Sequence record: PP400786
DNA length: 64,000 nucleotides
DNA from: Escherichia phage FL12
Strand: one strand, 5' to 3'
Positions 5,505-57,795 of the stretch are shown one piece after another; positions within the stretch are counted from its first letter, which is position 1, and the number at the start of each line of letters is the position of its first letter. A program made the position numbers and the translations under genes. The notes below the pieces were generated by a model. The model was not told where the DNA came from, made no database searches, and saw only the letters and a program-made list of their open reading frames with translations.

Positions 5505-6824
5505 TCACACATAAAACACATCATAACGACCACGAGTGACACCAACATAAAGAAGCTGCTGAGCCAATTCAGCATCTGCATAATGAATACAAGGCGTATA
5601 GATGAAAGCACGGTCTACAGACATACCCTGCGCTTTATGGAATGTTGATGCAGGAAGTGCTTTCACTTTACTAAACTGTGATTTAGCATCCCAAAAATCA
5701 CTCCACGGAGCTTTTCCACCTTTATTCCAATTTTTATAAGTTTCTGCTGTTTTACCTAAAAATAGGTTAAACTTATATAGCTCTTCATCAGATGAAATTA
5801 TTTTAATCTTTTCACGATAATATTCATCATCGCCGTAAGTTTCTACTGTTAAATCCCAATGACGAATTAGATATTCTCCAGGAACACCACGAGCTTTAAC
5901 AAACGTTGATGTATACTCTGCTTCTATAATACGAACTAATTGTCCGTTATTAAAAATAATTTCTGACACAGGCTTTCCATCAATTTTATATGTTTTAATT
6001 AATGGTTCCTGCATTACAATAATTTCACCGACAATAAAATCTTTATCAGTTTCAAAAATCTTTTTACGAATAATGCTATTTAACTTGTCAACAGATTTAT
6101 TCGTAAATGCCATTACGCGATTTTCAAACAAATCATCTAAAGATTTGACGATTGAAAAATAATTTACCATAAAATCGCGTAAAGCGGTATCACCAGTAAA
6201 TCCACGTACTCCATGCCCGTCAACAACTTTATCATAAATCCACTTACCGTTACGAACATCAGTAGCTACATCAATAATAGGAGCATTACTGCGTTTAACT
6301 TCAGTGAGTTCACACTGATAAAAATCTTTGTGTGTAAAGAACGGACTGATATAAGCAGTGTTTTCTCCTGGGTCAACAGGTCTAATTTGCTTATTATCGC
6401 CTATTCCAATTATAGTACACCAAGGTGGGATAGTTGAAAGCAGAATTTTAAATAGCTTTCTATCATACATTGACACTTCATCGCAGATTAATACTCTGCA
6501 TTTAGCTAAATCTGGTACTTCCTTCTGTTCAAAAAGAACATTTTCTTCATATGTTACTGGGTTAATTTTAAGAATACTATGAATAGTACTTGCTTCTTTC
6601 CCTGATAGTTTTGAAAGAATCTTTTTAGCTGCATGAGTAGGAGCTGCCAAAATGATACCAGTTTCACCCGTAGATATTAAAGCTTCAATGATGAACTTAG
6701 TAAGAGTAGTCTTACCGGTACCAGCAGGTCCATTAATAGTTACATGATGTTTCTTTTCTTTAATAGCCTTCATAACAATGTTAAAGGCATTTTTCTGGCC
6801 TTCGGTCAAATCATCAAATGTCAT
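5505..6824 (-). CDS. dda: Dda SF1B DNA helicase
   Basis: 439 aa as T4 Dda; Walker A GPAGTGKTT; Walker B LICDEVSM. Confidence 0.9.
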   Translation of the reverse strand: MTFDDLTEGQKNAFNIVMKAIKEKKHHVTINGPAGTGKTTLTKFIIEALISTGETGIILAAPTHAAKKILSKLSGKEASTIHSILKINPVTYEENVLFEQKEVPDLAKCRVLICDEVSMYDRKLFKILLSTIPPWCTIIGIGDNKQIRPVDPGENTAYISPFFTHKDFYQCELTEVKRSNAPIIDVATDVRNGKWIYDKVVDGHGVRGFTGDTALRDFMVNYFSIVKSLDDLFENRVMAFTNKSVDKLNSIIRKKIFETDKDFIVGEIIVMQEPLIKTYKIDGKPVSEIIFNNGQLVRIIEAEYTSTFVKARGVPGEYLIRHWDLTVETYGDDEYYREKIKIISSDEELYKFNLFLGKTAETYKNWNKGGKAPWSDFWDAKSQFSKVKALPASTFHKAQGMSVDRAFIYTPCIHYADAELAQQLLYVGVTRGRYDVFYV

Positions 6825-10124: not shown

Positions 10125-10324
10125 GATTTATCACCGTAAATATCTCTCATTAATTTAAGAGCTGAGCGCTCTAATTTCTTTTCTTGCTCAGCTTTAATCA
10201 TAGATTTCATCCACTCTTCTGATTCGTTCTGCATTTCTTTATTTGCTTGTTCAACCCAGCCATCGTCAATATACATTGAGTTTGATCTATTGAACCATTC
10301 AAGCATTTTCTTCAGAACTTTCAT
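10121..10324 (-). CDS. small hypothetical protein
   Basis: ORF track 67 aa. Confidence 0.45.
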
Positions 10325-10333
10325 TTGTTTTAC

Positions 10334-10801
10334 CTAAAACAATAGTAGGAGCATCGTCAAATTCATGAATTTTAGCAATTTTGGATTTAAATTATTCCAT
10401 ACATAATAAATAAAGTATGATAAAGCATCTTCACTCGCAATTATAAATTTATTTCCTTTATCTATTTTCCAACTATATAATGAATCGTACGAATAGAAAG
10501 ATAAAGGTTTATCATTATATTGTTCTGCGCTAACATTAATGTATTCGGATTTAGTAAATGCTTCAATTGCTCTAAACGGAATATTTGGTACAGTTTCAAT
10601 AATACCAATCTTTTTAAGTTTTATTTCAGCATCTTCTGGAACTGGCATTGAAACGAAATTTTCTACGAGATACATAGGGTTACAATAACCCTTATCAATC
10701 ACTACGGCTACAGTAATTGGAACATCTTTAGCAAACGACATGCTATTACTGCTAATATACATTTCAAACAAAATCGCTTCCATAATTTTCCTCAATCGCA
10801 A
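10334..10801 (-). CDS. hypothetical protein
   Basis: ORF track 155 aa. Confidence 0.45.
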
Positions 10802-11920: not shown

Positions 11921-12117
11921 TTTGAATGCTCTATAATTAATTTTAAGGCTTCTTCGCTGACAAAAATTTCGTCAGGACCTTCTTCTATAACCCAATCAAC
12001 CATACGAAGTTGATTAGTTAAGAGCTCACATACGAGCTCCTTGTTATAATCTTTAAATAGCTGGTTAATACGTTTCTTATGGGCTTTCTTAAGCTGACGC
12101 TTATTTAAACGAGCCAT
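11917..12117 (-). CDS. small basic hypothetical protein
   Basis: ORF track 66 aa. Confidence 0.45.
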   Translation of the reverse strand: MARLNKRQLKKAHKKRINQLFKDYNKELVCELLTNQLRMVDWVIEEGPDEIFVSEEALKLIIEHSK

Positions 12118-12635
12118 TAATAACCTCGGTCTTGACGAGCGAAGTTTTCAGCATTTTTCAGGTAATAAAGTTTAAAGATTTCTTCAGCTGACATTCCAAG
12201 AGCAATAAATTTATTCATGAAAAAGTGAAATTGGTCAATCAGTTCAAATTTAATTTCAAGCTGATCTTCGGGAGATAAATCTTGAATTTTCTTGGATTGC
12301 ATTTCAGAATAACGTTTCTTCCAAGGTTTCCATACAGCAGAAGCTTCTTTTTCACCATTACTCATACCACCAAGAGAAGTATATAGTTCGCGAGTTTCAT
12401 CTGCGATATAATCGTCTTGGTTTCGCAACCAAGCAAGAACTTCTCCTGCGGTTTCAAGTGAATCAGGATGACGATTTGTTTCTGGTTTATCATTAGCCAA
12501 ACGAATCTGTAAATGCCGCTGCATATCAAGCATAACCTGCAGTGGGTCAATATTGTGCATAATATTCTCAGCATATGCACGATTTGCTTTATCAACACCT
12601 TCGATCAAATGAGCACATTCATTAAAGTAAGCCAT
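12117..12635 (-). CDS. 56: dCTPase/dUTPase (MazG-like)
   Basis: start moved to ATG 12633-12635 (MAYFNECAHLIEG; RBS AAGGAAAAA) giving ~171 aa as T4 gp56; MotA-box-like TTGCTTTA plus TATAAT upstream. Confidence 0.7.
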   Translation of the reverse strand: MAYFNECAHLIEGVDKANRAYAENIMHNIDPLQVMLDMQRHLQIRLANDKPETNRHPDSLETAGEVLAWLRNQDDYIADETRELYTSLGGMSNGEKEASAVWKPWKKRYSEMQSKKIQDLSPEDQLEIKFELIDQFHFFMNKFIALGMSAEEIFKLYYLKNAENFARQDRGY

Positions 12636-12706
12636 TATTTTTCCTTTCAATTCATGGGTTAGTAGATTAATTATACAATAAATATATAAAGCAATAAGGA
12701 GGACAT

Positions 12707-12907
12707 ATGGTACAAAAATTAATGGCACTTGTTAATGCCATAAAAGGTAATAAAAAACGTATAGCTTTTACTATTTCTGCTATGGTAGGAATTTTACTCT
12801 GGAACTTTATTCTATCACCTGTTGCAATTGCGCATGGTATTAATATTCCAGTAGTTACTCTTGATACATTTGTAGATTTAGCATTTGCTTTAGTTGGGTT
12901 GATTTAA
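12707..12907 (+). CDS. plus-strand small membrane protein (two predicted TM segments)
   Basis: ORF track 66 aa; strong SD AAGGAGG 5 nt before ATG; sits in the 268-nt gap between genes 56 and 61. Confidence 0.45.
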   Translation: MVQKLMALVNAIKGNKKRIAFTISAMVGILLWNFILSPVAIAHGINIPVVTLDTFVDLAFALVGLI

Positions 12908-13932
12908 ATCTTAGCATATTTAGATAGCCGCATTTTAGCCATCAACCCCTGGGCAATATTATTTTTCATATATTCCATAATTTGTTCAGGGGTTGCACCT
13001 TCCTTTCTAATCATATCATTGACATCTTTTGATTTCCAGGGAGATTTATCCCAAAACATAACCCTTTCTCCTGCATCAACTAATTTAGTCATTCGTTTGA
13101 TAGTGTCAGGGTGACGAGGTTCATTATCTAAAACCCACACTCGTCTATCTTTAAATGGAACAACTTCTAGGTCTAATTGACCACCTGTAATAGCTATACC
13201 ATTTTCAATAAAAAGTGAATCTATAGGTCCTTCTAGAACATATACATCACCATCTTTAACTCGTTCAACTCCATAGATTTTTGTTGCCTCAGGATAAGCT
13301 TTGATGGTGATATATTTTTGAGGAGCATCTTTCTTTAATGCACGTCCTTGAAAAGACTCAGCTTTTCCATTAGCATTATAAATTGGAATAACAAGACGAG
13401 GCTCAGATATTTCCTTTTTATATGTTCCCGGTGCTATACTATTAACTAATTTAGGCCATTCGGTTGTAAACCAAAGATATTTCCATTTATCCTTTGGAAT
13501 ACAACGAGCTTTTACGTATTTTATAATTGGGTGGTCTTCCGCCAGTTTATCTAATCTAACACATGACGGAAGAGATTTAATTATTTTCTTCTCAGGTTGT
13601 TTAGGAAGTTCTTTAGGTTTTTCTACTGGACGACTTTTACCTTTTTCTTTTCTTATTTCAAAGATATACTCACGATATAAATCAGGTTCAAACTCCTTTA
13701 AATATATTCCGATTGGTGCATGATAGTTACAGTTATAACAATGAATATTTCCTTCATTATTATCACCATAATACCATCCACGAGCTTTATTCTGGTCGGT
13801 TTTTGAATCTCCACAAACAGGGCATCTAAACCGCAATTTAAAAGTTGAACTATTATTTACTTGTGTGAATTTAGGTAAATGAGCTAATGCACGGTATGCA
13901 AACTCATTATCAATCCAAGGTATTGATGACAT
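12904..13932 (-). CDS. 61: DNA primase
   Basis: 342 aa as T4 gp61; zinc ribbon CPVCGDSK...CYNC. Confidence 0.9.
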   Translation of the reverse strand: MSSIPWIDNEFAYRALAHLPKFTQVNNSSTFKLRFRCPVCGDSKTDQNKARGWYYGDNNEGNIHCYNCNYHAPIGIYLKEFEPDLYREYIFEIRKEKGKSRPVEKPKELPKQPEKKIIKSLPSCVRLDKLAEDHPIIKYVKARCIPKDKWKYLWFTTEWPKLVNSIAPGTYKKEISEPRLVIPIYNANGKAESFQGRALKKDAPQKYITIKAYPEATKIYGVERVKDGDVYVLEGPIDSLFIENGIAITGGQLDLEVVPFKDRRVWVLDNEPRHPDTIKRMTKLVDAGERVMFWDKSPWKSKDVNDMIRKEGATPEQIMEYMKNNIAQGLMAKMRLSKYAKI

Positions 13933-13934
13933 TT

Positions 13935-14099
13935 TTACTCTTCTTTTTCTTTAGATTCCTCTTTTTTCTTTTTAGGAATCTGCTCAGGACCTTTATTTAC
14001 TACAGCGCCTGACGTTGTTCCAGTAGAGATATTTTCAGGATTACCACCTGAATCTCCAGCGACCATATCTTCTTTGATAAATTCTTTATATGTTTTCAT
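13935..14099 (-). CDS. small protein with internal-protein-like capsid targeting leader (MKTYKEFIKE)
   Basis: Own translation 54 aa MKTYKEFIKEDMVAGDSGGNPENISTGTTSGAVVNKGPEQIPKKKEESKEKEE; RBS GAGG; not in track. Confidence 0.45.
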   Translation of the reverse strand: MKTYKEFIKEDMVAGDSGGNPENISTGTTSGAVVNKGPEQIPKKKKEESKEKEE

Positions 14100-14100
14100 A

Positions 14101-14456
14101 TTAACCTCTATTCATAAAAGCATTAAAAATTTGGTCATCAATAGATGGCGCAGTAATATTTTCTGCATCATTTAGCAAATCATTAATTTCATCAGATAGC
14201 ATAACACATGTACCTTTATTTCCTGTAATTGTTACTGCACAATTACGAACGTTTTCTTTATCAAATTTTAGGTTAATATTTTCGTAGTGAAAATCCTTTA
14301 ATGCCGAATATATCTTTAAAATGAAATTGTCTTTTACTACAATAAACCCAACCTCACTATTAAAACGTGGTTCATGGAAACTGTAATAAACCTTTTCATC
14401 TATAAAATCGTATGAAATTTTTCCATTTTTAAATATGAAAATTCAGAACTATACAT
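14101..14456 (-). pseudogene. degenerate partial duplicate of the downstream 210-aa gene; no clean start
   Basis: ATG 14454-14456 opens an 18-codon frame; the +2 frame encodes ...VGFIVVKDNFILKIY...SIDDQIFNAFMNRG paralogous to 14458-15090; ~45-bp near-identical junction repeat at 14097-14144 and 14454-14501. Confidence 0.45.
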
Positions 14457-14457
14457 A

Positions 14458-15090
14458 TTAATCTCTATTCATAAAAGCATTAAAAATTTGATCGTCAATA
14501 GAAACTTTTACTTTAGGCTGTTCTTCAAACGGTAATTCATATCCACATATTACAATTTTGTGATCGATACCAAAATACACAGAAGCAATATTATTAATAT
14601 TATTTTCAGTGAAATCTAAATCAACATCAATATCTTTTTGACTAACGCTCAAAGGATAATTAATACGAATAATTCGATTATCTTTAACAAAGATTCCACC
14701 GACATACTCTGTGCTGCGTTTAAAGTTTACACGTTTCCTAAATGAAAAATATTCAGGTTCTTTATGGGCTCGACTCATAGGGCTTAAAGTGTATTCCGAA
14801 TATGAAATATCAAATCCTACACCTTCAATATGAGCCAAAGTGTCATGATTAAACCAATTATAATCGTATGCCAAATCCATTAAATTGTAATATGTGAAAG
14901 GCACCGGATTAACATCATATGTTGTACCTTTAAAATCTGCCCAGGCAACGATTTCGTTATCTTTAACAATTACAAAAATTGTGCCAATAAGATATCCACG
15001 GTTATTTTCATCAGGCGTTATATTATAACATTGTGCATCAGGAAATTTACCGTATTTAAACGGTGGATTTTTGTGCATATAATAAATCAT
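14458..15090 (-). CDS. hypothetical protein with internal repeat (61.2 position in T4)
   Basis: ORF track 210 aa; repeated IFV(I)VKDN modules. Confidence 0.5.
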   Translation of the reverse strand: MIYYMHKNPPFKYGKFPDAQCYNITPDENNRGYLIGTIFVIVKDNEIVAWADFKGTTYDVNPVPFTYYNLMDLAYDYNWFNHDTLAHIEGVGFDISYSEYTLSPMSRAHKEPEYFSFRKRVNFKRSTEYVGGIFVKDNRIIRINYPLSVSQKDIDVDLDFTENNINNIASVYFGIDHKIVICGYELPFEEQPKVKVSIDDQIFNAFMNRD

Positions 15091-15091
15091 A

Positions 15092-15385
15092 TTATTCGCC
15101 TGTGATTTCGGTTACGATATTTTTATTATTGAAGTTTTTATCACAATACAGAACGTAATTATACTGCATTACCCCACCAGACTTAAGCTGTTTTTGTACT
15201 TCAGCTTTCATTTCAGGACGATCACGCTCAACGATATTCATAATATCTGCTTCAATTTGAGTTTCAACCTCAGTCTGATCCGCAGTCATAGACCATTCGC
15301 ACAAATCTTTATCATAGCCTGCCATAGCAGGCTGAGCAGCACAAGAAGATAAAGCAAAAATTGTAGCAAAGATAAATTTTTTCAT
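15092..15385 (-). CDS. sp: periplasmic protein Spackle-like
   Basis: 97 aa with signal peptide MKKFIFATIFALSSCAAQPAMA; length and position as T4 Sp (61.3). Confidence 0.55.
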   Translation of the reverse strand: MKKFIFATIFALSSCAAQPAMAGYDKDLCEWSMTADQTEVETQIEADIMNIVERDRPEMKAEVQKQLKSGGVMQYNYVLYCDKNFNNKNIVTEITGE

Positions 15386-15443
15386 GATAATCTCCTCAGT
15401 AGTTTATGTTTATAGTATCTCAATTTCCAACAAAAGTAAACAG

Positions 15444-15701
15444 TTATTTTAAAACTTCTGCATAATCACATGTTACAAACTGTTTCTCTAACTTGACGAT
15501 TTTACGAAAGTATCTTTTGCATTGGCGAATCTGCCGCTTCGTAGGGCGAACAGCAAACTTAATAAATTCCACTCGACCAAATGGAGGGTTTTCTTCTGCT
15601 GGAATATCTAACACCAATTCCCACGTATCCGCAATAAGTGCTTTGAATTGAGTATTTTTCCTAACGTTATACGGAGTAGGTTTAAATAAAACAATATGCA
15701 T
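15444..15701 (-). CDS. small basic protein (61.4 position; possible TifA-like)
   Basis: start moved to ATG 15699-15701 (MHIVLFKPT; RBS GAGGA), 85 aa. Confidence 0.4.
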   Translation of the reverse strand: MHIVLFKPTPYNVRKNTQFKALIADTWELVLDIPAEENPPFGRVEFIKFAVRPTKRQIRQCKRYFRKIVKLEKQFVTCDYAEVLK

Positions 15702-15702
15702 A

Positions 15703-15885
15703 TTATCCTCGGCAATCCACTTCACATACTTTCTTGTCATCAATAAAAGCTTCAACTAATGCTTTATTAACTTCAGCATACTGAGTAGTAGCCCATTGAA
15801 CGTCATCTTTCATCATTGTGGTTTCTTTAGTAAACATGCTTTCATTCTTAAACCACCCCATAAAAACTACCTTTACCAATTCCAT
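15703..15885 (-). CDS. dmd: Dmd-like antitoxin (inhibitor of RnlA/LsoA)
   Basis: 60 aa MELVKVVFMGWFKNESMFTKE... as remembered for T4 Dmd; directly downstream of gene 41. Confidence 0.6.
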   Translation of the reverse strand: MELVKVVFMGWFKNESMFTKETTMMKDDVQWATTQYAEVNKALVEAFIDDKKVCEVDCRG

Positions 15886-15912
15886 AACAATCTCCTCATT
15901 TAACCAACAAGA

Positions 15913-15944
15913 CTACTATACCATAGTCTCGTCAGCTTGTAAAC
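15913..15944 (-). promoter_or_regulatory. T4-type early promoter upstream of dmd
   Basis: minus strand GTTTACaagctgacgagactatgGTATAGT. Confidence 0.45.
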
Positions 15945-17371
15945 TAAAATTTTAATTCATTCGCCAAAGCATCTAACTGAGCTCGAGCTGATTCGTTTCT
16001 TTGATAGCGATTCTGTTCAGCCTGAATCTGTTGTGAACCTGCTACTTCGTTCACTTCAGTTGGAGTAGAATCTTGTTCAATTTCTACCCATTTCTGATTT
16101 CCCTTTTGAACACCCATCAAAAACTTATTCCATTTGTTCTTATCGCCATATCGTGATTTGATTTGCTTAATGAGTTGTTGTTCAGCAGCTGCTAGCTCCT
16201 CGGTTTCAATGACTGCAAGCATAAAATCAGCTGTTGCTGGAAGACCGGCAGATTCTGCAATATCGCTCATGTTAACATCGGAAGAGTCCCAAGCTTGTTT
16301 ACCAACCTGTGCTGCAGTCCAAAGAACAGTTTCGGTTTCAACAGCCAGAGCACGCAATTCCTCGGCAATAGCTTTAACAGTTGTGTAACTATTTTCTGAA
16401 TAAACTCTAATGCGGCAAGATTTACAAATACCTAGATAGTCGACAATAATGATTGTTGGAACAAAATTCTTCTTGAGCTTCAATTCGTTTAAAAGTGATC
16501 GAAATGTATTAGCATCTGCTCCACCAGTAGGATATTGTTTAACGATTAAACGACCGAGAGTAGATTTCTCACGCCATTTTTCCATTTTTCCTTTATACTC
16601 AGCGTAAGAAATATGCCCATCATCAATGTCATCAAGAGAAACATCAAGCATATTAGCGTCAATACGTTTAGCACAGACTTCTTCTGCCATTTCCATGGAG
16701 ATATAAAGAACGTTATGACCAAGCTGTAAATAATCTGCTGCCAATGAACACAATCCTAATGATTTACCAACGTTAACGCCAGCCATTAAAACGTTCAGTG
16801 TTCCAGTCTCAGCTCCGCCTTTAGTAATTTTGTTTAGAATTCTGAGTTTAAATGGAACCTTACGAGCTTTATTCATATAAGATAGCCAGCGTGCTTCGTA
16901 GTCATCCATCCAATCATGACCAACGTAGCTATCAAATGAAATTGATAATGCTTGACGCATGATGTCAGGAATAGCACCAACATCCGGCATTTTCTTATTT
17001 CGTTTTTCCGGAGGAAGCTCAGCATTAGTTTGAATTTCGATTATTTTAGACGTAGCATTAAACATCGCCCTTTGCTGAACATATTTTTCTGTTTCTTTTA
17101 CTAACCAGCTGTGGTCTTCTGGAGAATCGGCTAGTTTTGAAATAAGTGTTTTTACACCAGAATATTCCGTTTCAGTAAATGAACTATTTTCTAATGCAAC
17201 ATTTAACGCATTAATAGATGGAACGCTATGATACTCATTGACATGAGATTTAATTAATTTGAATGTATTTTTAGCTGGACCACTTTCAAAATATTCTGAA
17301 TCCATATATGGCCAAACTTTTGAAAAATAAGCTTGATCAAATATGAGATGAGAAAGAATAATTTCTACCAC
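15944..17371 (-). CDS. 41: replicative DNA helicase (DnaB family)
   Basis: 475 aa as T4 gp41; Walker A GVNVGKS. Confidence 0.9.
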   Translation of the reverse strand: MVEIILSHLIFDQAYFSKVWPYMDSEYFESGPAKNTFKLIKSHVNEYHSVPSINALNVALENSSFTETEYSGVKTLISKLADSPEDHSWLVKETEKYVQQRAMFNATSKIIEIQTNAELPPEKRNKKMPDVGAIPDIMRQALSISFDSYVGHDWMDDYEARWLSYMNKARKVPFKLRILNKITKGGAETGTLNVLMAGVNVGKSLGLCSLAADYLQLGHNVLYISMEMAEEVCAKRIDANMLDVSLDDIDDGHISYAEYKGKMEKWREKSTLGRLIVKQYPTGGADANTFRSLLNELKLKKNFVPTIIIVDYLGICKSCRIRVYSENSYTTVKAIAEELRALAVETETVLWTAAQVGKQAWDSSDVNMSDIAESAGLPATADFMLAVIETEELAAAEQQLIKQIKSRYGDKNKWNKFLMGVQKGNQKWVEIEQDSTPTEVNEVAGSQQIQAEQNRYQRNESARAQLDALANELKF

Positions 17372-17380
17372 ACTTACTCC

Positions 17381-17725
17381 TTAAAAGAATTTAAACTTTT
17401 TCTTTGACCTTTTATTAAATGCATCTTGTAGTTGCATTGTAATACATTTTTCTACATGAGGAGCTAACTCAGCTTTTCTTTCTTGGTCAAGAACAGCAAA
17501 GTCCATTACGACTTTTCCATCAACCCAATCTAATTTTGTCACATACACAATGTGCGTAGAACCATCTTCTAGTTTAATGACAATCTCCTGGATAACATTT
17601 TCCATGGCAGATTTAATTATCTTAAGAGACTCATTAAAAAGACGTTCTTTTCTTTCTTCTTCCCCCTCCGAAGAGGGGGATTCATCGATAATTTCTAGAT
17701 CTAAATCTAAATCATCTTTATTCAT
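17381..17725 (-). CDS. 40: gp40-like protein (head vertex assembly chaperone position)
   Basis: start moved to ATG 17723-17725 (MNKDDLDLDL), ~114 aa; between 41 and uvsX. Confidence 0.5.
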   Translation of the reverse strand: MNKDDLDLDLEIIDESPSSEGEEERKERLFNESLKIIKSAMENVIQEIVIKLEDGSTHIVYVTKLDWVDGKVVMDFAVLDQERKAELAPHVEKCITMQLQDAFNKRSKKKFKFF

Positions 17726-18901: not shown

Positions 18902-19567
18902 TTATAGTAGTGTTCTTGTTCCACGAAATACTTCGAGCATTCTTGCATAAGATTTATTTGGAAATCCAGCTTCAATTGCTAATTTTTTAAGCTTAATAGC
19001 ACCGGGTTTTCCAGAGTTTTCCCATATTTCTTTAATCTTTTCAATGTTATCCCACATTATTGGGTCACGTTTATGTGATGGTTTATTTCTATTATAACCA
19101 TATGGATTATTAAGCAAAGCTTCTTTTCGTTTTGCTTTAGTTTCTTCTGACTGCTTTTTGCCTAGCTGGGCTTTCCGGCAAACATCACTAAATCCAAGAT
19201 GTTTTGGTTTTCCTTTTTGAGCTTTTGAAATTTTTTCTTTGGTTTCTGATGAAACTCTATAACCAATTCTTCTACCACCCTCTCCACCAATTTTTAAATT
19301 ATAAGTCATAGGATCATTTACCACATCTATTGTTACTAATTCTCTTTCAGCATCACGGGCTGATTTAAAATCTTTATAAAACCCAAGAATGCTTAAATTA
19401 AAATTTTTCTTACCATACTTTTTCTTGGCTTGTGCTAATAAAGTTCCTGATCCCATATAACCATCATTTAAATCATCGGTTGAATGAGTTCCATAGTAAA
19501 TTTTATTATTAACTAAATTAGTTATAACATAAGTATAATTATATTTCTTTTCTTTATGTCTTTTCAT
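18902..19567 (-). CDS. segA: GIY-YIG homing endonuclease SegA-like
   Basis: start moved to ATG 19565-19567 giving 221 aa; KYNYTYVITNLVNNKIYYGTHS GIY-YIG motif; between uvsX and beta-gt. Confidence 0.7.
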   Translation of the reverse strand: MKRHKEKKYNYTYVITNLVNNKIYYGTHSTDDLNDGYMGSGTLLAQAKKKYGKKNFNLSILGFYKDFKSARDAERELVTIDVVNDPMTYNLKIGGEGGRRIGYRVSSETKEKISKAQKGKPKHLGFSDVCRKAQLGKKQSEETKAKRKEALLNNPYGYNRNKPSHKRDPIMWDNIEKIKEIWENSGKPGAIKLKKLAIEAGFPNKSYARMLEVFRGTRTLL

Positions 19568-41231: not shown

Positions 41232-41532
41232 TTTCTTCTCGGTCAAATCGGTGTTTACAATGGCGGCATTTATAACGAAGATTACTAGTCTGCCAATGGA
41301 CCAATTGCACCTGTTCAGTTCCACATTCAGGGCAATTAGGAACGTTTTTAGAAGCACGTTCGCGGCGTTCAACCATGACCATTACAGAATCCCAATTAAC
41401 AGGAGGGCTATAATCATCACAACCATGAATCTTTCCACGCATTTCTAGATCGTCTTCTTCACCAGCCATAATAATTTTAATTAAACTGGAATTACTTGAA
41501 GCTGCAATGTCTTCTAATAGACGCTTTTTCAT
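41218..41532 (-). CDS. zinc-ribbon protein
   Basis: ORF track 104 aa; CPECG-N18-CRHCKHRF. Confidence 0.45.
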
Positions 41533-41574
41533 TTCAATACCTCAATAGCATTACGTAAACCATTTGCTTTTGCA

Positions 41575-42207
41575 TTAAGAGCTTTTAACAATTTGGTGTG
41601 TTCTGCAATTTGGGGCTTCAACTTCAATCAAACGAGCATTGAGATATTCGCGTTCTTCTTTCATAGTATCATTCCCATGATTGGGTTTTGGTGCAGATTT
41701 AAATTCACTAGGGTCCTTTAATTTAATAACAAATTTAGTTTCAAACAGTGAAAGACCATAATTCGTATTATCATCAAAGGATTTGACTACATCCATATCA
41801 GATAATAACACGCGCAAATTATAAGCCAAAGAACTAATAGTTTCATTGTGTTTATTAGCTTCGCGTGGTTTCATATACGGAAGATTTTTATATATCTCGT
41901 GCGGAGCACAAATGATAATTGACAATTCAAATTGTCCATTCTGGGACGATGGAGTGAATTTAGCCGTAACCCAGTCTTTTACATTCACATTAATAGTACG
42001 GTTATCACCATGACAAAACAGTCTACGAGAATGCTTAAAAAGCATATTCACGTTATTATTGAATTCGTGTGAAAATTCACTAGCAAATTTTTCTTTACTA
42101 CATTTAGAAAGCCATTCTTCTGAATAAGTTCTTTTCACGTCGTTAATAATATTAAATGTAACAACACTAGCATTTGATACATTAGTCTCAATGTAGCTTG
42201 GATACAT
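41575..42207 (-). CDS. hypothetical protein
   Basis: ORF track 210 aa. Confidence 0.45.
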   Translation of the reverse strand: MYPSYIETNVSNASVVTFNIINDVKRTYSEEWLSKCSKEKFASEFSHEFNNNVNMLFKHSRRLFCHGDNRTINVNVKDWVTAKFTPSSQNGQFELSIIICAPHEIYKNLPYMKPREANKHNETISSLAYNLRVLLSDMDVVKSFDDNTNYGLSLFETKFVIKLKDPSEFKSAPKPNHGNDTMKEEREYLNARLIEVEAPNCRTHQIVKSS

Positions 42208-42452
42208 AAATTTTTAACATTATTAACAGCTATTATAGAAGATAGTAATCGGGAACGTTTGAACCACTCGAGCAAAGAACCAAGAGAATGTGAATACGCA
42301 TTTTGTGTATCTTTACAAATATGGTTTTCCCATCCAATATAGTCTAAAAAATCACGAAGAATATTATTGATTACTGCTCTGTGTCCTATCTGATAATTAC
42401 GGTGTTTAGTAATAAGACTGTCAAAATAATCAATATAATGTTTACGAGTCAT
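42135..42452 (-). CDS. hypothetical protein
   Basis: start moved to ATG 42450-42452 (MTRKHYIDYF), ~105 aa, downstream of early promoter. Confidence 0.45.
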   Translation of the reverse strand: MTRKHYIDYFDSLITKHRNYQIGHRAVINNILRDFLDYIGWENHICKDTQNAYSHSLGSLLEWFKRSRLLSSIIAVNNVKNLCIQATLRLMYQMLVLLHLILLTT

Positions 42453-57628: not shown

Positions 57629-57795
57629 TTTTCCTTAGTAAATTGATTTACCAAAGTATTTGTACCAAGTCGGGCGTTGAGCAATTTTTTATCTAAGCGT
57701 GCTTGACTTATCGCAATGGACGCTTCGGACGGGTCATAATTTCCTCCAAGTAGTTGATGAATGTATAGTATCAAAACCCTTGGAGGAAGTAAACA

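Follow-up and report, generated by a model that had tools for sequence, protein, structure and literature searches.

What is the DNA that lies between two copies of a short direct repeat just downstream of adfA in a T4-like phage: the debris of a gene amplification, or a gene in its own right? The question is raised by a stretch of 64 kb from Escherichia phage FL12, a T4-like phage (Tequatrovirus), in which the minus strand carries all genes around the site in question. The whole stretch is here called the window, and coordinates are those of the window unless another sequence is named. Gene adfA (14458-15090; T4 gene 61.2), which encodes anti-DarT factor A and is intact with 210 amino acids (aa), is separated from gene 61.1 (13935-14099; 54 aa) by an interval at 14101-14456, and a copy of the repeat stands at each end of this interval. 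An earlier note, made from the letters of the window, had described the interval as a start-less, frame-broken paralog of the C-terminal half of the 210-aa product and as a remnant of gene amplification.

The answer reached here is an old tandem paralog of adfA, maintained by selection and sitting in a recombination-prone slot. It is a small gene for a single-domain AdfA-family paralog (phrog_4122), 118 aa long in relatives and frameshifted in the window. The locus as a whole is a variable slot between the spackle gene sp and genes 61.1 and 61, in the dmd-tifA-sp-adfA 'anti-toxin island', and it holds two tandem AdfA-family genes. The explanation that best accounts for the observations, and which we consider very probable, combines two tandem paralogs, a cassette end that is read in three ways, turnover mediated by the repeat and a -1 slip in the small gene.

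Results and discussion

The direct repeat described in the earlier note is real. It is 49 nucleotides (nt) long, its copies lie on the minus strand at 14097-14145 (copy 1) and 14454-14502 (copy 2), and they agree at 46 of the 49 positions (94%); none of the three differences falls within the TGCTT core or the TAATAT of the promoter discussed below. A 28-nt core of the repeat occurs exactly twice in the window and in none of 100 dinucleotide shuffles. The copies are 357 nt apart from start to start, rather than 358, because one A is missing in the window. A dot-plot of the region against itself, as had been proposed, would give the 49-nt diagonal and no other, the repeat scan reporting nothing else and the bodies of the two genes being 42.8% identical in nt.

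Read on the minus strand, each copy comprises the last 14 codons of one gene (SIDDQIFNAFMNR[G/D]; codons TCT ATT GAY GAY CAA ATT TTT AAT GCT TTT ATG AAT AGA GRT), a TAA stop, a single T and the ATG of the next gene. Copy 2 encodes the tail of AdfA, with the stop at 14458-14460 and, after the spacer, the ATG of the small gene at 14454-14456; copy 1 encodes the tail of the small gene, with the stop at 14101-14103, the 1-nt spacer and the ATG of 61.1 at 14097-14099. The peptide endings had been read correctly before, the 210-aa open reading frame (ORF) ending in ...SIDDQIFNAFMNRD and the frame between the repeats in ...SIDDQIFNAFMNRG. The final codons AGA GGT provide an AGAGG Shine-Dalgarno sequence 5 nt ahead of the next ATG. 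In the window adfA itself ends in ...NRD, while all relatives examined end in ...NKG or ...NRG, and this ending also changes the Shine-Dalgarno sequence of the small gene, which is AGAGA here versus AGAGG in copy 1 and AAAGG in copy 2 of the relatives.

The 49-nt unit would have three readings. It would encode a conserved C-terminal peptide, S[IV]DDQIFNAFM[NK]R[GD]; it would act as a middle promoter dependent on MotA and AsiA, the copy adjoining 61.1 being the mapped T4 promoter P61; and it would give the following gene its Shine-Dalgarno sequence (AGAGG) and start codon. Within the overall explanation, and with the same high probability, the constraints on peptide, promoter and ribosome-binding and start site, stacked on one another and joined by recombination or gene conversion, would keep these 49 nt nearly identical in spite of the old divergence of the gene bodies, and a recent origin is not required to account for their likeness.

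The paralogy proposed in the earlier note holds. BLASTP aligns the two proteins with 36% identity (E=1e-11), and hhalign (97.7%, E=2e-12) pairs residues 20-118 of the small protein with residues 110-210 of AdfA over 96 columns. The similarity exceeds chance also when the shared tail is left out (z=6.5; 1 of 2000 shuffles reaches the observed score). The description of the frame as start-less must be abandoned: the ATG at 14454-14456, within copy 2, starts a coding sequence of 357 nt and 118 codons that is annotated in relatives such as NR1, Ozark and RB68. With one A restored the product is identical to the NR1 protein and matches phrog_4122 from end to end; this family and the AdfA PHROG family hit each other. 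Against the Pfam AdfA model the repaired product scores 31.9 bits (cut-off 27), and it does so over model positions 113-211 only.

The small protein does not have the two-half architecture of AdfA. It consists of 118 aa in a single domain of beta-sheet and helix, for which AlphaFold2 predicts a compact five-strand sheet with helices (predicted local distance difference test, pLDDT, 83; core above 90), followed at the C-terminus by a linker and a low-confidence helix. It resembles AdfA in the VKDN strand motif, in the helix that carries the equivalent of residue 164, in the C-terminal tail and in its place in the same slot after sp, but it differs in having one domain, in its length (118 versus 208-216 aa) and in carrying Asn where AdfA alleles have His or Arg. 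Because it scores above the Pfam cut-off but lacks the two halves, the gene would best be named a single-domain AdfA paralog. In published surveys the gene is not included under adfA, and T2, although it carries the gene, is said to be 'naturally lacking adfA'.

Several observations indicate that this is a maintained gene. Its 118-codon ORF is intact in 294 GenBank phage records, T2 included, and one single version of the protein is found on 159 contigs. The ratio of nonsynonymous to synonymous substitution rates (dN/dS) among intact orthologs is 0.09-0.33, and the small gene is thus under purifying selection. Moreover, orthologs at 46-49% identity are present in other T-even genera, where they lie behind a different upstream gene. 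The duplication itself must be ancient, since outside the tail the two bodies are saturated: beyond the last 14 codons 27 of 88 aligned residues are shared (about 31%), the 42.8% nt identity given above applies to this part, and the same codon is used for only 8 of the 27 shared residues, versus 13.5 expected from codon usage.

The promoter in the repeat was recognised through the MotA-box consensus and a published start site. P61 is an experimentally identified MotA-dependent middle promoter of T4 with its start site at 19122 (Hinton 2010, PMC2988021, Table 1; source Marshall, Sharma and Hinton 1999), and the MotA box has the consensus (a/t)(a/t)(a/t)TGCTTtA, centred near -30 and placed 12+/-1 bp from the -10 (PMC2988021). 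In the T4 sequence (AF158101) this start lies 9 nt inside 61.1; the TAATAT at -12 to -7 joins the stop codon of 61.2, the single T and the first two letters of the ATG of 61.1, and the GCTT at -30 to -27 falls within the codons AAT GCT TTT (TGCTT core at -31 to -27). Between -45 and +9 around this start site, copy 1 does not differ from T4, and by this identity of sequence it can be equated with P61. Its -10 TAATAT is at 14098-14103, its MotA box TAATGCTTTT at 14116-14125 (TGCTT core 14118-14122), 12 bp upstream of the -10, and its predicted transcription start is the A at 14091, so that the transcript would begin 9 nt inside 61.1 as in T4. Copy 2 has its TAATAT at 14455-14460 and its TAATGCTTTT box at 14473-14482, all on the minus strand, with a start predicted at 14448 by analogy with P61. 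In both copies TAATGCTTTT matches 9 of the 10 consensus positions, with TGCTT exact, and a 12-bp spacer precedes TAATAT. A generic sigma-70 promoter scan misses the element because it has no -35 box. In the record of phage Lutter, promoters are annotated on both tails.

T4 has one copy of this sequence, the same as copy 1, whereas the genome of the window has an extra one 357 bp upstream, at the end of adfA, which is a putative second promoter of the P61 type. Working in middle mode, it would contribute further RNA across 61.1 and 61. Since its transcription is predicted to begin at 14448, past the ATG of the small gene, that gene would be translated from upstream early transcripts, in coupling with adfA. 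A comparable arrangement is seen elsewhere in T4, where the published Pdam start (17617) lies 8 nt inside the dam ORF (16846-17625 of AF158101), mirroring P61. Middle promoters placed on stop/start junctions, such as Pdam and P61, may be a recurring arrangement in T4.

The tail is found in three families of genes, namely AdfA, the small paralog and a family of 145 aa. The peptide DDQIFNAFM is invariant in 29 tails from these three families and from several genera, while six of its nine codons vary synonymously. The synonymous variants include GCT to GCC or GCA in the core of the MotA box, and the -10 shows the variants TAA to TGA or TAG. A peptide that does not change while its codons do indicates that selection acts on the peptide, and the C-terminal helix would be a motif with a shared function.

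The 145-aa family (phrog_8539) occupies the same slot after spackle in loci L009, L010, L014-L019 and L021 (about 2120-2565 in each), and in L009 and L010 its gene is directly upstream of the ortholog of the small paralog. It has in common with the AdfA family just a tail of 15-17 residues (...YS[IV]DDQIFNAFM[NK]R[GD]) and the stop/start junction. A wider relationship to AdfA was considered and rejected, pairwise comparison not being significant and hhalign aligning only the 15-17 residues of the tail.

How the repeat may act can be seen from the comparison of T4 with phage Shfl2. Their alignment falls into two segments with an offset of 358 nt and an overlap that is exactly the 49-nt repeat, a pattern that bears the signature of gain or loss of one unit through recombination at the repeat. 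T4 is therefore Shfl2 minus exactly one 358-bp unit with both breakpoints in the repeat, as would be left by an old tandem paralog in a recombination-prone slot. The direct repeats would be the substrates of such exchange, and a gain or loss of 358 bp would interconvert genomes with adfA and the small gene and genomes with adfA only. A separate deletion of adfA would yield genomes with the small gene only, such as T2. In T2-type genomes the missing part of adfA runs from the ATG to a point four codons short of the stop, which leaves the arrangement sp-TAA-TTAGAGGTTAGT-ATG.

All three configurations are common. In a collection of 50,697 phage records the small gene was found in 294, the N-terminal half of AdfA in 486 and the junction of adfA with the small gene in about 157. 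Both genes are present in these about 157 records (as in the window, RB68 and Shfl2), the small gene only in about 137 (T2, NBG2) and adfA only in about 329 (T4, T6, RB69). Tail-bearing genomes of Tevenvirinae account for 687 records. The earlier note had predicted variation in copy number, and this was borne out for the presence or absence of whole genes but not for arrays of more than one copy, the small gene being present 0 or 1 times per genome. In two of the 294 records the 5' part of the small gene is matched twice, and in at least one of them, OY720014.1, the locus is at the very end of the record; these double matches may reflect terminal redundancy and not a true second copy.

Traces of exchange are also visible within the tails. 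At 11 of the 13 shared tail residues the same codon is used, versus 7.5 expected (P=0.03). The last two codons of each tail follow the downstream gene and not the body to which they belong, and in both types of AdfA allele they read K-G where the small gene comes next and R-G where 61.1 does. The tails of L010 agree with each other over 39 nt except for one base, whereas those of its sister L009 show three synonymous differences; the L010 tails are homogenised relative to those of L009.

Two known systems invite comparison. In the mobile PeSL cassettes of T4-type phages (Arbiol et al. 2010, PMC2839356; PMC4122927), as here, short repeated regulatory sequences flank non-essential genes in hyperplastic regions, and recombination adds, removes or swaps genes; indels flanked by the repeats between close relatives are likewise found here, between T4 and Shfl2, as one unit of 358 nt. 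However, PeSLs are intergenic and consist of an early sigma-70 promoter and a terminator stem-loop, whereas the present repeat is a middle promoter inside coding sequence and encodes a peptide; a search of 13800-16000 found no terminator-like site. Lacking both an early promoter and a stem-loop, and not being intergenic, the element cannot be classed as a PeSL. The dmd-tifA amplifications that evolved in T4 (Srikant et al. 2022, PMC9391042) are alike in being in the same island, in tandem and formed by recombination at short homologies. They are nevertheless recent and made of several identical units with junctions unique to each lineage, whereas here there are two anciently diverged paralogs that vary only by presence or absence.

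The statement of the earlier note that the interval is frame-broken was confirmed, and the only lesion is the loss of one A from a run of six (GGAAAAAATTT to GGAAAAATTT). The site is at 14418-14422, T5 on the plus strand and A5 on the minus strand, where all 294 GenBank relatives have A6. The -1 slip comes after codon 13, and the frame ends after 18 codons (MYSSEFSYLKMEKFHTIL*; 14400-14456). What remains at the 3' end is an ORF of 33 aa (MLSDE...FMNRG; 14101-14202, minus strand), the sole ATG-started ORF left in the original frame; it is called on a further 22 contigs and carries an annotation in Escherichia phage FL12. When the small gene is aligned with those of NR1 and Ozark, its sole other difference is one synonymous change, 90G>A, versus NR1.

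The lesion is not confined to the window. Eight of the ten contigs examined carry exactly the same change from A6 to A5 (L029, L030, L033 and L035-L039), and the unrelated metagenome contig UMED01024097.1 has the exact A5-bearing 42-mer; this contig is locally 97% identical, has the T2-like start MHSSEF and lacks adfA. With the window counted in, the A5 alleles represent four or more haplotypes and every one of the three gene configurations. Exact-pattern scans for A5 gave nothing in the IMG/VR or GTDB genomes. Other lesions of the small gene exist as well: at about 5750-6102, L032 (OZ035785.1) and L034 have different indels (11delC, 41-42delTT), and truncated forms of 54 aa occur in UTI-E4 and ESh36. 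Seven of the eight single-nucleotide differences between broken alleles and NR1 are at third codon positions, which indicates that the inactivations are recent and arose on functional backgrounds. As the same lesion is present in at least nine other assemblies and on at least four haplotypes, the lesion in the window is probably a genuine, recurrent loss-of-function allele. Its recurrence in nature indicates that the small gene is dispensable and often lost. In L039, which carries the A5 small gene, adfA is itself split into pieces of 118 aa and 64 aa (426-1408 of that locus).

There are points that weigh against the explanation preferred here. The activity of the second promoter copy is deduced from its sequence alone, and both models give the tail helix a low confidence (pLDDT about 50). 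The excess of shared codons in the tails is only modestly significant, so that gene conversion within the genome is unproven. If T2 without adfN is sensitive to DarTG1, as the paper on AdfN implies, the paralog of T2 does not neutralise that DarT1 during infection. A5 is found in none of the 294 GenBank records. Finally, two further -1 homopolymer deletions in the window break the conserved accessory genes mrh and nrdC.3, and a pattern of three such deletions also fits base-calling error.

The earlier name of 'gene-amplification remnant' is right about the tandem paralogs and the frame-broken copy and wrong about a degenerate leftover, in view of the 294 intact records, the dN/dS values and an nt identity of 43%. 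If the 3' part of adfA had been duplicated in tandem recently, as in the evolved dmd-tifA amplifications, and were now decaying, this would account for the head-to-tail layout, for the near-identical 49-nt repeat at the junction and for the broken frame in the window, and T4 is able to amplify neighbouring genes of this very island through short homologies (PMC9391042). Such an origin is nevertheless very unlikely. The units are far from nearly identical (31% of aa and 42.8% of nt shared outside the tail, with codon identity below random expectation), 294 records have the gene intact, purifying selection acts on it, its orthologs in other genera follow a different upstream gene, and all genomes seen had at most one copy. 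It could also be thought that the repeat is kept purely as DNA, as promoter and ribosome-binding site, the tail peptide being a meaningless by-product. The tail coincides base for base with the mapped P61, three gene families end in it although the 145-aa family has no detectable homology to the others in its body, and its helix is poorly predicted. Yet DDQIFNAFM stays invariant across genera while six of its codons vary synonymously, even in the MotA core and the -10, and the reading frame of the element is the same in every family, which makes a role as DNA only rather improbable.

The frameshift allows two other readings. It could be an artefact of sequencing or assembly, namely an undercalled homopolymer, so that the phage truly has an intact gene of 118 codons. 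A single base in an A6 run is concerned, no GenBank record shares the change, and apart from it the gene has one synonymous difference from the intact NR1 gene; moreover the deletions in mrh and nrdC.3 are also of -1 type, in T5/T6 runs. Gene mrh (10302-10783) is split into two frames near 10370 at a T5 run, where T4 and relatives have one T more, and a 71-mer of the window across the site has no identical counterpart in the 195 phage records that match it. In nrdC.3 (41532-42449) a change from T6 to T5 near 42211 shifts the frame, the original frame resuming near 41612 within a diverged stretch; the extra base is present in all six full-length matches listed (118 records), a count that excludes two unlisted records in the >=99% identity band. 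Against an artefact stands the identical A5 in a metagenome contig and in SRA-derived assemblies of different projects, on at least four haplotypes and in three configurations. In addition, more than 100 other genes of the window, every essential one included, read through in a single frame, whereas random errors would be expected to strike some essential genes in 64 kb, and the small gene carries independent lesions in L032, L034, UTI-E4 and ESh36. An artefact is for these reasons unlikely, though it keeps a considerably greater weight than the last alternative, which is that the A5 allele still yields the full-length protein by programmed -1 frameshifting or that the run is a phase-variable switch. 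The A5/A6 length polymorphism recurs on several haplotypes, and in our reading of the sequence a single -1 slip of tRNA-Lys on the A run would restore the frame. However, the in-frame A6 is the norm (294 of 294 records, and 159 contigs for one version of the protein), a tract of A5-A6 is short for efficient slippage, and no stimulatory RNA structure is apparent in the sequence, though no search aimed at one was made. Set beside a contingency locus, A5 is indeed on at least four haplotypes, but the tract is just 6 nt and other types of lesion occur too. The other broken alleles have unrelated lesions, and the damage in the other broken genes of the window is like that in the small gene, in keeping with an ordinary spectrum of mutation. 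This last alternative can scarcely be credited, and the preferred reading is still that of a recurrent inactivation of a real gene.

What the small protein may do has to be judged from AdfA. The product of 14458-15090 matches the Pfam family PF23813 (AdfA) with 459.3 bits over model positions 1-210, its full length, so that the gene is adfA, i.e. T4 gene 61.2; PF23813 was also precomputed for the proteins P0001-P0005. It has the two-half architecture (about 208-216 aa), its model (pLDDT 70.7) showing two halves of sheet plus helix and a low-confidence tail helix. An internal duplication of its N-terminal half and C-terminal half has weak support (z=2.6; 42 of 2000 shuffles reach the observed score). 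AdfA is an inhibitor that binds DarT1, and its residue 164 is decisive, His neutralising the toxin and Arg not (PMC11257639). The neutralising His-164 (RB69 numbering) is found neither in the AdfA of the window nor in the small paralog, both of which have Asn (N167 of the 210-aa ORF and N72), and the equivalent of residue 164 lies in a helix common to the two proteins.

The intact small protein is a putative toxin-binding inhibitor whose specificity would be other than that of AdfA. The models of AdfA and of the small protein gave no convincing match among solved structures. An exhaustive search of 1.84 billion cluster representatives with a hidden Markov model yielded no more than 10 clusters, every one of them T-even-like, and word-based searches yielded 5 and 16; the family is so narrow that there are no distant homologs to inform on function. 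A further protein, AdfN, is reported as necessary for resistance to DarTG1 in T-even phages, and an adfN deletion strain of T2 exists.

On the minus strand gene 41 (helicase; 15944-17371) precedes dmd (15703-15885), 61.4/tifA (about 15447-15701) and sp (15092-15385), which forms the upstream edge of the variable slot and whose junction with adfA is also TAA-T-ATG; on the other side 61.1 is followed by gene 61 (primase; 12904-13932). The grouping of adfA with dmd and tifA in an 'anti-TA island' has been described (PMC9391042).

The first 25 kb of the window are about 95% identical to T4, and there are several differences outside the slot. The region 12100-12910 is without dam and segF, which T4 has between genes 56 and 61; a plus-strand ORF of 66 aa at 12707-12907 is annotated in relatives as an RB51-like hypothetical protein, and gene 56 (dCTPase) has just 69% identity to the T4 version. 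At 57638-57762 T4 denV is detectable only as a short frame-changing remnant (residues about 96-137). No counterpart with more than 60% identity was found in the window for T4 ipIII, e.7, tk.1/tk.2, nrdC.4, 49.2/49.3, I-TevII and mobC.

Conclusions

The observation from which this analysis started is real and is largely explained by known elements. What is new is that a paralog of half of AdfA is present also in T2, that a coding tail doubles as P61 and as the homology for turnover, and that the A6 run is a recurrent site of inactivation. For annotation, the interval should be regarded as a frameshifted copy of a real gene and not as junk, the same frameshift recurring in independent assemblies.

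One short DNA would serve as the tail of a protein, as a mapped middle promoter and as a start of translation, and its duplication would supply the homology for gain and loss of genes. The small paralog is the only AdfA-family gene of T2 and is a candidate new toxin inhibitor of the dmd-tifA-adfA island. More tentatively, and as a possibility that we consider rather unlikely in its full form, a portable cassette end with three coding layers (C-terminal helix, MotA middle promoter, and ribosome-binding site with start codon) may let T-even phages duplicate, delete and swap anti-toxin domains after spackle through homologous recombination, the paralog being a stand-alone inhibitor, of a toxin other than the DarT1 already tested, that may be silenced repeatedly by slippage in its A6 run when it is costly or is sensed by the defences of the host.

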